A DNA stretch of 64,000 bases from Escherichia coli (GCF_048403405.1 NZ_CP183129.1); one strand, 5' to 3'. Counted from the stretch's first letter, positions 58,290 through 64,000 are shown. Made by a program: numbers and translations. The notes: generated from the sequence alone by a model not told the origin.

Positions 58290-58299
58290 TCTGTATAGT

Positions 58300-58335
58300 T
58301 ATTTATTCGCAGGAGTACCAGTGCGGTACTCCTGT
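58300..58335. terminator. Bidirectional terminator hairpin at the yhiD / chu-locus junction
   Basis: Inverted repeat caggagtaccagtgcggtactcctg between convergent yhiD and chuV. Confidence 0.65.
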
Positions 58336-58340
58336 TGGTT

Positions 58341-59111
58341 TTAATGATCGAGGACGATCAGGGGTGAATGGTTGGCAGGATCTTTAAGTACGGTAATATC
58401 CGCGCCGTAAAGCATGGTCAGCGCCTGCTGTGTCAATACGTCCTGTGGTTTACCATTTGCGATAACCCTTCCTTTTTGCATTAATACAACACGGTCTGCA
58501 TAACGCGCGGCAAGATTTAGATCGTGCAATACGCAGCAAACATTGAACTGCCGTTCGTGAACTAACTGGCGTAATAAACGGAACAAGTGCTGCTGATGGT
58601 GAATATCCAGCGCCGAAGTTGGTTCATCAAGAAATAACCATTTCGGTGAGGGAGTAGGTTCCCAGAGTTGCACCAGCAGGCGCGCTAATTGCACGCGCTG
58701 TTGTTCACCACCGGATAATTGCCGATAGTCGCGGTTTGCTAACGCCTGACAGTCACATAACGCCATTATTTGTGCTGTTTCATTATCCTGATTACCAGTA
58801 CGATGCGGATGCCGACCCATCTGGATAACTTCTTGTACGCTGAATGGAAACGCCATGTGGCTATTTTGACGCATCACGGCCCGGTGTTTCGCCAGTTCAG
58901 TAATCGACCATTCATTTAATGGCTTATTAAACAACCGACATTCGCCGCTATCAGGTTGAAGATAGCCGGTTAACTGGCGAAGCAGCGTAGATTTTCCCGC
59001 ACCATTAGGGCCGAGAATGGCAACAATTTCCCCACCGGGAAAAGTCAGCGAGACATTGTCAGTCAGACGCCGCCCCTGAAGGCTATAAACCAGATTCTGG
59101 GCGCTGATCAT
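58341..59111 (-). CDS. chuV: Hemin ABC transporter ATP-binding protein (ChuV/HmuV/ShuV)
   Basis: 256-aa ORF from ATG at 59111 ([16 protein letters not shown]...), Walker [14 protein letters not shown] overlap with chuU stop. Confidence 0.9.
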
Positions 59112-60100
59112 GTGATCCTCCGGTTGCGCAGAATCAACCACATAAAATAAGGACCGCCAAGCAGGCTGGTTAATAATCCCACGGGCATTTCTGCTGGCTG
59201 TACCAGCGTGCGGGCAAGCGTGTCTGCCATCAGCAATAAACAGGCTCCGGCGAGGGCGGAGCAAGGGATTAGCCAGCGGTGATTTGCCCCGGTAGTCATA
59301 CGAATCAGATGCGGGATCACCAGGCCAATAAAGCCGATAATGCCGCTTACCGATACGGCGGCACCAACGAGCAGTGAGCTCACTAACAGTAATTGCTGGC
59401 GTTTACGCTTAACGTTCACGCCGAGGTAGTGGGCTTCTTCATCACCGAGCTGCAGTAAATTCAGCGTTCCGGCGAGACAAGTTGTTGCGATAATGGCCGG
59501 TAGGATGAATGAACTGGCAACCAATAACGTCGGCCATTGCGCCTGTCCAAGATTGCCCATCATCCACAATGTGAGTTGTCGTAGCTGCTGCTCATCGCCG
59601 ATATAGCTCAGGATGCCGATCGCTGCGCCGCACAGGGCATTGATGGCGATACCGGCGAGTAATAATTGCATCATGCTGCCATCGCGATGGCGCTGCGTGA
59701 TGAGAAAAATGATGGTGCAGACCACTAAACTTCCGGCAATGGCAAACACCATTTGCTCATAGAGCACCAGCACCACTGGGAAGGAGAAGGGCAGCACAAT
59801 AGCAACGCCAACCATTAATGCAGAACCGCTACTGACGCCGAGTAATCCAGGGTCAGCCATTGGGTTGCGAAAAAGCCCCTGCATAATTACCCCGGCGGTT
59901 GCCAACGCTGCACCTACCAGCACCGCCAGCAAAACCCGTGGTAGACGAATATTGAGCCAGATATCGCGGTATTCCTCATCAAAAAGGGCATCAAAACTGA
60001 TCTTTAACGCTCCCTGACTGGCACCGAACAGCACCAGGGCAAGCAATAATAGTGATAGCCCCATAAAGACCCTGGCGGATGAAAATGAATCCTTGAGCAC
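59108..60100 (-). CDS. chuU: Hemin ABC transporter permease (ChuU/HmuU/ShuU)
   Basis: 330-aa FecCD-family permease ORF. Confidence 0.9.
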
Positions 60101-60150
60101 GCAAAACTCCGTTATGACGTTGCGGCGCGGAGAGTCTGCGCCGCATGGGA

Positions 60151-60774
60151 TTACGCCGGTTTCAGGTCAGGTTCAATCAGACTGTAGATCTGCTTGTTGA
60201 GTGCTGGCGCGTTTGCCAGTTCATGAATGTGTGCAGCGACATCGGCACGGTGAACAAAACCATGACACTCCTGATTTTGTATCCGTTGTGCTTTGCCCGT
60301 TGCCGCCCCATCAAGCAGACCGCCAGGGCGGAGAATGGCGTAATCAAGCTGGCTGGTTTGCAACCAGCTTTCCGCCAGCGTTTTTTCCCGTACCGCCTGA
60401 CCAAACGCAGCCTTTGCCCGCTCCGATAAAAACGGCCAGCTATCGCCGCATCCCAAAGAGGTCACCAGAATCATGCGACTAATGCCGGCCTTTTCGGCCT
60501 CATCAATCACTGTTCTGTGCGCCAGATAATCCTGAGCTCCTCCCATTGTTGAGATGATAAGCGCATCCGGGCCAGCTGCGTGGCAAGCAGCCGCAACTAC
60601 GCTGGCATCACAGGCGTCGCCTGTAAAAACCTGTACGCCTTGTTGCGCCAGTTTCGTGGCGGCATCGGCATGACGAACGACAGCAACGACCGGACGTTGT
60701 TCCGCCAGCGCCAGTTCAAGCGTTCTGGCACCCACACCTTTTCCGCCTGCGCCAAAGAGTAGCCACGGCGTCAT
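60151..60774 (-). CDS. chuY: NAD(P)-binding anaerobilin reductase-like protein ChuY
   Basis: 207-aa ORF with N-terminal GAGGKGVG Rossmann motif; position in chu operon. Confidence 0.85.
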   Translation of the reverse strand: MTPWLLFGAGGKGVGARTLELALAEQRPVVAVVRHADAATKLAQQGVQVFTGDACDASVVAAACHAAGPDALIISTMGGAQDYLAHRTVIDEAEKAGISRMILVTSLGCGDSWPFLSERAKAAFGQAVREKTLAESWLQTSQLDYAILRPGGLLDGAATGKAQRIQNQECHGFVHRADVAAHIHELANAPALNKQIYSLIEPDLKPA

Positions 60775-61268
60775 CAGGCGTGTTCCTTTAACGATGCCGC
60801 CAGAGCATGGAAAGCGTTGACCTGTTCGCTCAGGAGCTGACGATGGTCATCCCTGCCGAGGAAGATTTTCAGCATGGCGCTGCCTTCCTTATTGAAAAAG
60901 AGAATAGAGGCGGTGTCCATGCCCATAAATTTACGTTCGATCAAGGCAATATGTGTGCAGTTTTCTGCTTTGATATGCCCGGACATGCCGTGCTTTCCGC
61001 GTAGGTTGAAATAGCCGTGGCGGTGGAAACCCGAAGGCAGTTCGCCGCTAAATTCGAGGATTACATCGGCAGTATGTACTAACGTGGTGACGTTGCCCCA
61101 TTCGCAGACGGTATCCCAGACAGTATCGAATTTATCGCCTGACACTATGGTAGAGGAGGGCAGATTTTTCACTACTTCCAGCAGTGTGGTGTTGTATTGT
61201 TCGGCTACCACCTCCAGCGTACCGTCCGGCTCCGTTTTCAAAAATTCTTGTAACGAGACATGGCTCAT
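60774..61268 (-). CDS. chuX: Heme-binding protein ChuX (HutX family)
   Basis: 164-aa ORF; 1-nt stop/start overlap with chuY. Confidence 0.85.
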   Translation of the reverse strand: MSHVSLQEFLKTEPDGTLEVVAEQYNTTLLEVVKNLPSSTIVSGDKFDTVWDTVCEWGNVTTLVHTADVILEFSGELPSGFHRHGYFNLRGKHGMSGHIKAENCTHIALIERKFMGMDTASILFFNKEGSAMLKIFLGRDDHRQLLSEQVNAFHALAASLKEHA

Positions 61269-62618: not shown

Positions 62619-62637
62619 TCGTCTGATTTAAATCCAT

Positions 62638-63552
62638 TTATTGCGGCCAAAGCTGCTGGTGTAAAGACTCAACGACATCAGCAATACGCGGACCCATTCC
62701 CAGAATCAGGTTTTGATCAACGGTGATAATGCGCTGGTTTTTCCATGCGGCAGTGTGGGTAATTCCGGCAATAGAACGTAGCCGATTAATATCGCCATCG
62801 ACCATTTGTGAGGTTACGACAATCACTTCTGGATTGGCCGCAATCAGTGATTCTGCACTGTAGCTTTTGTACTGCTGGTGGGTTGCGACGTTTTCTGCTC
62901 CGGCAAGCGAAAGAATGGCGTCCGCGACGCTGCCTTTACCGGCAACCTGTGGCGCACTTCCGCCTGCGGAGAGAATAAACATGGCTTTAACCGGGGCTTT
63001 TTTGGCCGCCACGTTTTGCTGTACTCGCTCCAGGCGTTGGTTGATCTGTGTCACCAGCGCCTCGCCTTGTTCAGGAACCTGTAGCGTTTTTGCCAGTTGG
63101 CGAATGTTGGCGTACATCTGCTCAAGGGTGGCAGGCACACGCGGCAGGGTAACGACGTTGACTTTCTGCGCCCGCAGCTGGTCGAGCACAATTTGTGGCC
63201 CGGCATCCTGCCAGGTAATTACGCTATCCGGGCGAAGTGACAAAATGCCTTCGCTGCTGAGTTGTTTCCAGTAGCCAATATGCGGCAGTTTGGCGGTTTC
63301 TGGTGGGTAAGATGTCGTTTCATCGACACCAACCACGCGTTCGCCAGCGCCCATCGCGTAGATTAGCTCCGTCAGCGATCCTCCTGCGACCACGATACGT
63401 TCGGCAGCCGTTACGCTAAAAGCCCAGCTAAGAGCCAGTACTGCCGTAAACAATTTTTTTCGTTTTACCGCGGTCTTCGCGGCAGAGGCCACGGCTGAAA
63501 TACATAACGTCAGTGGGGAAAAAAGAAACGGCCTGGTGATGATCCTTGGCAT
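62638..63552 (-). CDS. chuT: Periplasmic hemin-binding protein ChuT (ShuT)
   Basis: Class III SBP-like ORF; start placed at ATG 63552 because the longer ORF to 63630 would run through a Fur-box-like sequence; start not certain. Confidence 0.8.
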   Translation of the reverse strand: MPRIITRPFLFSPLTLCISAVASAAKTAVKRKKLFTAVLALSWAFSVTAAERIVVAGGSLTELIYAMGAGERVVGVDETTSYPPETAKLPHIGYWKQLSSEGILSLRPDSVITWQDAGPQIVLDQLRAQKVNVVTLPRVPATLEQMYANIRQLAKTLQVPEQGEALVTQINQRLERVQQNVAAKKAPVKAMFILSAGGSAPQVAGKGSVADAILSLAGAENVATHQQYKSYSAESLIAANPEVIVVTSQMVDGDINRLRSIAGITHTAAWKNQRIITVDQNLILGMGPRIADVVESLHQQLWPQ

Positions 63553-63578
63553 AATATGAGAACTCTTATCAAGTTGAG

Positions 63579-63597
63579 AATGATCATGATTATCATT
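63579..63597. promoter_or_regulatory. Fur-box-like operator upstream of chuT (aatgatcatgattatcatt)
   Basis: Near-palindromic match to the GATAATGATAATCATTATC Fur consensus, 27 bp upstream of the proposed chuT ATG. Confidence 0.65.
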
Positions 63598-63924
63598 TGA
63601 GTTATATATGAAATACAACCGTCGATTCAATACGCACGGCGTTACAAGCGTATTTATTTTTGATTTTTATCAAGATGCTTCGTCAGCTAACGTTCTTGTT
63701 ACCGACTAAATTTCAGCGCGGGAAAAAGCTGAGAACCCAGAGATATCAAGGCTTGCAGAGCAAAGCGAAGAGAAAATTATCACTGTTAACGACAAAGTTT
63801 AGTGATGAGGTCATGGGGGAATAACCATAAAAACAAAGTGGTTTCCAGGGCGCAGGATAAGTTTCATAACCCCCTGTTTATTGTGTTAATGGCGGTTAAA
63901 AAAAAGCTTGATCATAAAAAATTG

Positions 63925-63943
63925 ATCGATAATAATTCTCATT
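63925..63943. promoter_or_regulatory. Second Fur-box-like operator (gataataattctcattatc), probably for the divergent heme gene beyond the window
   Basis: Strong match to the Fur consensus in the AT-rich region at the window end. Confidence 0.55.
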
Positions 63944-64000
63944 ATCACGTTTGTATTTAACAAAATACGGCCATATGGATAACAAAGCCATATCATTTAC

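Follow-up and report, generated by a model that had tools for sequence, protein, structure and literature searches.

Why does chuT, a gene for a periplasmic heme-binding protein, start with a Fur operator lying inside its own leader and with an atypical leader peptide of about 50 amino acids? The question arises in a window of 64,000 nucleotides from Escherichia coli (NZ_CP183129.1; positions below refer to this whole stretch), whose last part carries genes for the use of heme as an iron source. ChuA, encoded just past the window, imports heme through the outer membrane. In the periplasm heme is carried by ChuT, after which ChuU and ChuV transport it to the cytoplasm, where ChuX holds it. The radical SAM enzyme ChuW opens the heme ring anaerobically and ChuY reduces the product. 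These roles are established for the families, and the function of the window genes in heme uptake would follow from them. The locus matters as a virulence-associated iron source and chuA as a phylotyping marker, and in this respect there is nothing new. The locus itself, its site, its Fur boxes and the chuT start are likewise already known; only the ancestry of the chuT 5′ end was not met in the literature.

The chu locus and its genes

This part of the window almost certainly belongs to the canonical chu/shu locus for heme utilisation, which chuA-positive E. coli have at a fixed place in their acid fitness island, the yhiD-dctR site. Six intact ORFs on the minus strand (58341–63552) encode chuV, chuU, chuY, chuX, chuW and chuT. 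At the DNA level they show 100% identity with E. coli genomes of RefSeq in which chuA-chuS and then dctR-slp come next, and there RefSeq labels the products ShuT, HutW/ChuW, HutX, ChuY, ShuU/ChuU and heme ABC ATPase. The last backbone gene before the island is yhiD of the MgtC/SapB family (57642–58289, plus strand; NF007431, 402 bits; RefSeq annotation of the identical sequence). It is followed by chuV for the heme ABC transporter ATPase (58341–59111; NF010068, 395 bits with a cut-off of 261; RefSeq annotation), the heme ABC permease gene chuU (59108–60100; GTG start; RefSeq annotation), chuY for anaerobilin reductase (60151–60774; match to PDB 5FFQ/5GUY, E about 1e-132; RefSeq annotation) and chuX for the cytosolic heme carrier (60774–61268; TIGR04108, 210 bits, above the cut-off; match to PDB 2OVI). 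chuW, encoding the radical-SAM methyltransferase of anaerobic heme degradation (61281–62618; TIGR04107, 570 bits with a cut-off of 400), and chuT, encoding a precursor of 304 amino acids (62638–63552; RefSeq start; match to 2R7A), complete the set. Residues 49–304 of ChuT differ from the ShuT crystal chain 2R7A by one substitution.

The orthologues T, W, X, Y, U and V thus stand in the order and on the strand of the chu/shu locus, and within the acid fitness island they occupy the chromosomal position flanked by yhiD and dctR (yhiF); the original prediction of these six genes stands. Divergent chuA-chuS lies upstream of chuT outside the window, at 15637–18696 of a genome identical over window positions 57600–64000 (L001) and also in L009–L011; the extension suggested earlier meets chuS/chuA and the far junction just past the window end in identical genomes. 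A different identity, as another iron, B12 or siderophore ABC system of the btu, fec, fhu or hmu type, might be read from the NCBIfam models, on which ChuU reaches BtuC/FecCD-type models only, all under their cut-offs, ChuT likewise remains below the cut-off on BtuC/BtuF-type models and ChuY has zero matches. It is refuted by the identity to genomes annotated ShuT, ChuU and ChuY with chuA-chuS adjacent, by the near-perfect agreement of ChuT with 2R7A, by the equality of ChuY and ChuX to their PDB entries (5FFQ/5GUY and 2OVI) and by ChuW, ChuX and ChuV exceeding equivalog cut-offs, and we regard its probability as negligible.

The stop codon of chuU overlaps the chuV start in an ATGA (59108–59111), and base 60774 is common to the chuX stop TGA and the chuY ATG; both overlaps had been noticed before and are read in the sequence. 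The six genes had originally been taken as one operon; the literature has two units, chuTWXY and chuUV (PMC9002310). The shu locus of Shigella dysenteriae and the chu loci of E. coli O157:H7 and UPEC have the same genes, order and yhiD-dctR site. They share the Fur operator at the beginning of the shuT transcript (its first 19 nt), the 42-nt thermometer leader and the Fur box of the chuA promoter, and they differ from the window only by alleles, e.g. at chuT codon 28.

Fur operators, leaders and the chuT start codon

When the whole 64 kb were searched with the consensus GATAATGATAATCATTATC, allowing up to three mismatches, only two places matched, at 63576–63594 (16/19) and 63928–63946 (17/19), while shuffles predict zero. 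Within genes, the best match to a third site was only 13/19. The chuT operator (63576–63600) combines the 16/19 site at +1 to +19 with an overlapping 15/19 site (63582–63600, −6 to +13). Fur-box-like palindromes had been predicted at 63579–63597 and 63925–63943; the operators were recognised correctly, but each frame is 3 nt out of register (12/19 and 10/19). The predicted chuT promoter (63601–63630, minus strand) consists of a −35 element TTGAAT (63630–63625) and a −10 element TATATAAC (63608–63601), based on the sequence, on where the published start site lies and on the fact that promoters of receptor genes in other genera are conserved here. On the plus strand, the predicted chuA promoter with its Fur box (63908–63946) has a −35 element TTGATC (63908–63913) and a −10 element AATAAT (63931–63936). 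At both genes a 19-bp box covers the promoter or transcription start, and the chuA box (63928–63946) lies over the −10 element.

The chuT box at 63576–63594 is the published shuT operator. In Shigella, the equivalent operator (+1 to +19, with three mismatches to the consensus) is supported as a site of Fur repression by EMSA, fur deletion and truncation (PMC5458455), and it is on this work that Fur control of the present copy would be based. With both divergent promoters covered by a Fur operator, the genes should be on only under iron scarcity, judging from the Shigella and EHEC papers and sequence identity. Transcription of chuA may start at about 63945, as extrapolated from the 291-nt 5′ UTR in EHEC (PMC9002310), and the position of the chuA box agrees with such a start. 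Positions 63945–64000 would then be the start of a long 5′ UTR that leads to the chuA ATG at window-equivalent 64236. The FourU thermometer of shuA/chuA (Rfam RF02597) is found outside the window directly before this ATG (L001 15608–15639, window-equivalent 64207–64238) with 60.1 bits and a gathering score of 58; a permissive Rfam scan of 10 kb returned this known element only.

The chuT 5′ UTR of 42 nt (63553–63594, minus strand) corresponds to the leader described as an hsp17-like RNA thermometer hairpin covering the SD sequence AAGAG; in reporters, this leader makes GFP production depend on temperature and iron (PMC5458455). ViennaRNA predicts one and the same hairpin at all three temperatures used, with −9.0 kcal/mol at 25°C, −5.8 at 37°C and −4.4 at 42°C, and U15 and U16 match the published positions. 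A weak single hairpin, a 42-nt leader and a paired SD sequence are the properties of shuT-type thermometers; the chuT leader has them and should double as one. Leader and first codons together fold no more stably than shuffles (z = 0.31), as expected for a deliberately weak structure.

RefSeq starts chuT at ATG 63552, and the study of shuT in Shigella worked with the same codon. 5′-RACE placed the shuT transcription start 42 nt upstream of the ATG (PMC5458455), equivalent to window position 63594. Since the Fur box is the shuT operator from +1 to +19, ATG 63552 is confirmed as the start, in line with the original preference for it over the longest ORF. The TTG at 63630 that opens the longest ORF is ruled out because it lies upstream of the transcription start, where it coincides with the −35-like TTGAAT, and is not on the mRNA.

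Ancestry of the chuT 5′ end

From sequence comparisons we consider it quite probable that chuT is a chimera. The first 27 codons (63472–63552, minus strand), start codon included, and the promoter, Fur operator and thermometer leader before them would be the fossil of a gene R for a TonB-dependent receptor. R would have been the first gene of an ancestral R-T-W-X-Y-U-V operon, lost by an in-frame deletion when Escherichia switched to chuA-chuS, which is unrelated to it. Codons 28–50 (63403–63471, minus strand) would be T's own signal peptide (KRKK-LFTAVLALSWAFSVTAA), at the position where orthologues start with MKKL.

Heme operons of the R-T-W-X-Y-U-V type occur in Citrobacter, Kluyvera, Raoultella, Providencia and Proteus, and that of C. 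freundii is collinear with the window from T to V at 75.7% DNA identity. The 5′ end of the receptor gene in these operons aligns with the chuT promoter, Fur box, leader and 27 codons. In a tblastn search, the N-terminus of the Citrobacter receptor matched the chuT stub in the window with E = 2e-4, and an nhmmer profile of 25 R 5′ regions matched positions 63619–63473 (E = 2.4e-21), covering the −10 element, Fur box, SD sequence, ATG and 27 codons. With a profile of the R-T junction, homology resumes at T's ATG. Pairwise blastn between E. coli and C. freundii recovered the T-V block only and missed the 5′ homology that the profile and protein searches found. In 29 other enterobacterial species the receptor gene immediately precedes T, and a receptor of about 710 amino acids ends at T's start in 29/29 non-Escherichia loci with readable upstream sequence; one Kluyvera locus (P0096) was not placed on a contig. 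These operons thus keep the full receptor, whereas Escherichia has only the 27-codon stub. The receptor's N-terminal part is about 29% identical to ChuA. The Citrobacter-type operons lack divergent chuA-chuS, and in 3 of the 4 loci whose flanks were read they stand between the genes for a MerR-family regulator and a P-type ATPase rather than in the acid fitness island.

ChuT is 25–30 amino acids longer than its orthologues, which have 274–279 amino acids, start with MKKL and are 78–84% identical. T's ATG is retained as an in-frame codon 34 in E. albertii and in two further divergent genomes of Escherichia, all three of which represent separate species in the genome scan, while each E. coli allele examined lacks 9 nt at this ATG. 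In the window, codon 28 encodes Ala, as against Thr or Met in other E. coli alleles (five genomes sampled, four aligned); allele-specific megablast queries of 42 nt gave no matches, probably because the A-run was masked. An ATG at codon 28 was rejected as T's original start, given that the other Escherichia lineages have the original ATG at their codon 34.

An in-frame deletion of about 2.1 kb in the Escherichia ancestor probably removed R; its 3′ breakpoint is located with a precision of about 20 nt. Translation of T would now begin at the start codon of R, with the Fur box and leader of R in control, and the ChuT precursor would carry R's signal peptide and then T's own in tandem. In E. coli proper, T's own ATG would additionally have been lost through the 9-nt deletion. 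If true, this history accounts for the 'unusual' Fur site inside the shuT leader, for the leader of about 50 amino acids with two signal peptides and for the tolerance of E. coli towards the loss of T's own ATG. It would be a case of operon rewiring in which a receptor swap left the regulatory and start signals of the old receptor driving the next gene, so that "shuT regulation" looks like inherited receptor regulation. We found no prior description of the long ShuT/ChuT leader or a receptor relic in the searchable literature, which did not cover the original locus paper of 1998. MntS is similar in that a transporter gene was lost and its 5′ end, comprising metal-responsive regulation and the signal-peptide coding region, was kept. 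In contrast to MntS, a free-standing small protein with a new function, the chuT stub shares one reading frame with the gene that follows and provides at least the translation start of that gene. It might have a function of its own, e.g. in protein targeting or the control of translation, or as a peptide that is released.

The stub could instead be an untranslated leader or a separate frame, with ChuT made from an internal start at GTG codon 21, codon 28 of the ATG allele or TTG codon 34. The beginning of the orthologues at the position of ChuT codon 31, the two hydrophobic cores formed by stub and native leader, the ATG at codon 28 of some E. coli alleles and one deposited O157 annotation (P0006) that begins at TTG and yields 271 amino acids fit such a start. 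It is nevertheless rather improbable, as the published 42-nt leader confers regulated GFP production, T's native ATG is deleted in every E. coli allele examined, all four Escherichia lineages have an open frame that runs from ATG 63552 into T, and RefSeq uses this ATG. Databases hold ChuT versions of 330, 304, 278 and 271 amino acids, and the double leader may affect start annotation and export.

The island and its hairpins

The part of the chu island inside the window spans 58295–64000 by junction comparison with K-12. The whole island measures 9,061 bp, replaces 36 bp of K-12 and extends from 5 nt after the yhiD stop to the dctR stop codon at window-equivalent 67355. K-12 has the order yhiD-dctR-slp, as stated in the original prediction, and there these 36 bp are all that separates yhiD from dctR. 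For O157:H7 Sakai, a 9-kb insertion at the place between yhiF (dctR) and yhiD was described earlier (PMC2241611), and the heme transport locus has been placed inside the acid fitness island, including that of E. albertii (PMC5799925). Among 5,426 complete genomes, 2,235 (about 40%) carry the island, always chromosomally and in one copy, and 3,179 have the empty site. This patchy distribution, the puzzling phylogenetic pattern remarked on in PMC5799925 and the fact that the 36 bp at the empty site are unrelated to the island would suit a recent gain by a mobile element. Such a gain is nonetheless unlikely compared with an old Escherichia trait that was lost or recombined away in phylogroups A, B1 and C. 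End-to-end alignment scores of both island ends revealed no direct or inverted repeats above shuffles, and the annotation of the identical sequence contains no integrase, transposase or tRNA inside the island. Its G+C content (50.9%) is close to that of the whole window (51.1%). The island therefore does not qualify as an integrative or mobile element, and the absence of mobile-element signatures, originally noted for the yhiD end, applies to either end. Moreover, E. albertii, whose acid fitness island is reported to contain the heme transport locus, and the two other divergent Escherichia genomes have the same fused chuT and divergent chuA-chuS. The K-12 filler was also considered as a deletion scar, which was rejected because its best score against the whole island was 11 with a shuffle mean of 11.8.

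A hairpin predicted at the yhiD-side junction is real and lies at 58309–58335 (plus strand). This island-borne structure, absent from K-12, has an 11-pair stem (−19.4 kcal/mol, z = −5.2) and a T-tract on the plus strand only. It lies 5 nt past the chuV stop without a U-tract on the chuV strand and, judged by these features, is probably the intrinsic terminator of yhiD. A sequence search before chuU found no promoter-like or Fur-like site in the 50 nt between chuY and chuU. This spacer contains a GC-rich hairpin of 9 pairs (60121–60145, minus strand) that is conserved across genera and the same in Citrobacter-type operons, with compensatory changes in 4 of the 9 pairs among 16 taxa.

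Identity and chromosomal context of the chu genes

The minus strand at 58341-63552 carries six intact open reading frames, chuV, chuU, chuY, chuX, chuW and chuT, whose assignment to the chu/shu heme-uptake locus, proposed from sequence alone, stood up to homology searches. A megablast search with positions 57600-64000 against 5,426 complete E. coli genomes returned matches in 5,420, and in 2,235 of these at least 80% of the query was covered, chromosomal in every case. The top matches were 100% identical and annotated as yhiD, heme ABC ATPase, ShuU/ChuU, ChuY, HutX, ChuW/HutW and ShuT. 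In the identical genomes the ShuT gene is followed by chuA, chuS, dctR and slp, which places the remaining genes and the far junction beyond the window as the original prediction had suggested looking for them. ChuV, ChuX and ChuW score above the cut-offs of the NCBIfam equivalogs, ChuT residues 49-304 differ from the ShuT crystal chain 2R7A at one position, ChuY matches 5FFQ/5GUY and ChuX matches 2OVI. The tight gene coupling was also found as described, with the chuU stop over the chuV start in the ATGA at 59108-59111 and base 60774 common to the chuX stop TGA and the chuY ATG. The finding of the chu locus is correct and already known; its insertion site and co-location with the acid fitness island have been published (PMC2241611, PMC5799925).

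In K-12, 41 bp separate the dctR and yhiD coding sequences. Homology between the chu-positive strain and K-12 ends 5 nt past the yhiD stop and restarts at the dctR stop codon, so that in effect 36 bp have been replaced by 9,061 bp. A 211-bp probe across the K-12 junction was unbroken in 3,179 genomes and split in the remainder; empty and occupied sites (3,179 and 2,235) together account for 5,414 of the 5,420 matching genomes. No relation of the K-12 36 bp to the island was found, repeats common to the two island ends did not exceed chance, and the G+C content of the island equals that of the window. On sequence grounds, all three comparisons argue against a mobile element, in agreement with the reported lack of mobile-element signatures on the yhiD side. 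The hairpin noticed at this junction lies at 58309-58335 (11 pairs, −19.4 kcal/mol, z = −5.2). As a T-tract follows it on the plus strand only, it looks like a yhiD terminator supplied by the island.

The spacer between chuY and chuU holds another stem-loop (60121-60145, minus strand), which is GC-rich (GCGGCGC...GCGCCGC) and has no U-tract after it. Its conservation reaches from Escherichia to Providencia, and four of the nine pairs show compensatory changes. The element may serve in processing or stabilization and so set the expression levels of chuTWXY and chuUV apart. A 1.9-kb contig (L008, JAIJJM010000641.1) from a metagenome-assembled genome labelled 'Collinsella sp.' encodes a ChuT 100% identical to that of the window and most likely entered the bin as an E. 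coli contaminant.

Fur operators and the start of chuT

Searching all 64 kb for the Fur consensus with up to three mismatches gave matches at just two places, where none is expected by chance. The chuT Fur box lies at 63576-63594 (16/19) and the chuA Fur box at 63928-63946 (17/19). Both operators had been recognized correctly, but in frames 3 nt out of register that score 12/19 and 10/19. In Shigella, shuT transcription starts 42 nt upstream of the start codon, and a Fur site at +1 to +19 with three mismatches is backed by EMSA, a fur mutant and truncation (PMC5458455). The published transcription start maps to 63594 and the published Fur site to 63576-63594.

These data bear on the chuT start. 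RefSeq places it at ATG 63552, whereas TTG 63630, the start of the longest open reading frame, overlaps a −35-like hexamer (TTGAAT) and lies upstream of the transcription start; the choice of ATG 63552 in the original prediction was therefore right. The shuT leader is reported to form a thermometer of one hairpin whose anti-SD strand includes U15 and U16 (PMC5458455), and the predicted fold of the chuT leader is a single hairpin covering AAGAG.

On the divergent side, a putative chuA promoter (TTGATC-N17-AATAAT, 63908-63936) lies under the second Fur box. The 291-nt leader of EHEC chuA (PMC9002310) places the transcription start near 63945, and the Rfam shuA thermometer was found in an identical genome just past the window end. 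The spacer of about 265 bp between the two promoters (63640-63905) is AT-rich (35.5% G+C over 63553-64000), and neither homology to the region upstream of the receptor gene in other genera nor an Rfam match was found for it. Two short plus-strand open reading frames in it (54 and 52 aa) are probably spurious.

The chuT 5′ end is homologous to receptor gene 5′ ends

ChuT (304 aa) has two hydrophobic stretches ahead of the mature protein, while its orthologues (78-84% identity) comprise 274-279 aa and begin, with MKKL, where E. coli has codon 31. In C. freundii, the chuT orthologue (T) lies directly downstream of a gene for a 714-aa TonB-dependent receptor (R) on the same strand and is followed by W, X, Y, U and V. 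This order is shared by Raoultella and by Intestinirhabdus alba, which was deposited as 'Escherichia alba', and a Klebsiella sp. has R-T-W-X-Y without U and V. Residues 1-26 of the Citrobacter receptor (MLPRNNQRPFILSALTLCMSGAAFAA) match ChuT 1-26 (MPRIITRPFLFSPLTLCISAVASAAK) with E = 2e-4, and in the DNA alignment of R with chuT the −35, −10, Fur box, SD and ATG are all in register. A profile of 25 R 5′ regions matched 63619-63473 (E = 2.4e-21); its one other match in the window was weak and fell on the chuA Fur box. The chuT 5′ end is thus homologous to the 5′ ends of receptor genes.

With one genome per species, the survey of relatives gave 34 loci. A full R ends at the start of T in all 29 non-Escherichia species with readable upstream sequence, from Citrobacter to Proteus. 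Only Escherichia lacks R among these loci and has divergent chuA-chuS instead; ChuA shares about 29% identity with R over the N-terminal part. In a profile of the R-T junction, homology returns at the ATG of T. E. albertii and two further divergent Escherichia genomes retain this ATG as their codon 34, in the reading frame of the ATG derived from R. In E. coli it has been lost, 9 nt of its region being missing in all alleles examined. The chuT 5′ region is kept at at least 95% identity in all 2,236 chu-positive genomes.

Codon 28 of chuT (63469-63471) differs between the window and other E. coli alleles (L042-L045), reading GCG or GCA (Ala), ACG (Thr) or ATG (Met). In the Met-28 alleles, to which PGAP gives the name ChuT, an in-frame ATG is restored immediately before T's own signal peptide (MVKRKKLF), and some deposited ChuT proteins, such as the 278-aa P0009, begin there. 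In Citrobacter, Raoultella and Intestinirhabdus (loci L004, L005 and L006), a divergent MerR-family gene lies upstream of the R-T-W-X-Y-U-V operon, which in two of the three is followed by a P-type ATPase gene, a cueR/copA-like neighbourhood; these flanks place the same gene block at quite a different chromosomal site from that in Escherichia.

We infer that about 2.1 kb was deleted in frame, which brought codon 27 of R next to a position no more than about 20 nt from the start of T. In the R-containing operons the start of T overlaps the stop of R or lies 2 nt from it, so that translation of T in the ancestral operon was probably coupled to that of R. ChuT synthesis would then have been preserved only by a deletion after which ribosomes still ran on into T, and the unrelated ChuA would have taken over the receptor role. 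Descent from the receptor gene's operator would also explain why the Fur site has an unusual position for shuT, as observed by Wei et al. A further consensus match (63582-63600, 15/19), which overlaps the chuT Fur box, extends this operator across the transcription start. As an evolutionary point, a relic origin of the chuT start is modest, and no earlier description of it was found in the searchable literature, the 1998 paper first describing the locus aside.

Further observations in the window

bcsA is split into open reading frames of 142 aa (17570-17998) and 730 aa (17995-20187). The window has A5 at 17978-17982 and strain MS 69-1, whose bcsA is intact (872 aa), has A6; the 3 kb compared are otherwise identical. 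Either the cellulose-synthase gene is truly frameshifted or the homopolymer was misread in sequencing; bcsA of strain 4621 is likewise annotated as frameshifted. At the equivalent of 12500-13700 of the window, after tRNA-Pro, this closely related strain (annotation L003) carries Ldr-type type I toxin genes, three in tandem, and two copies of the RtT sRNA, the copy numbers being those of strain 4621.
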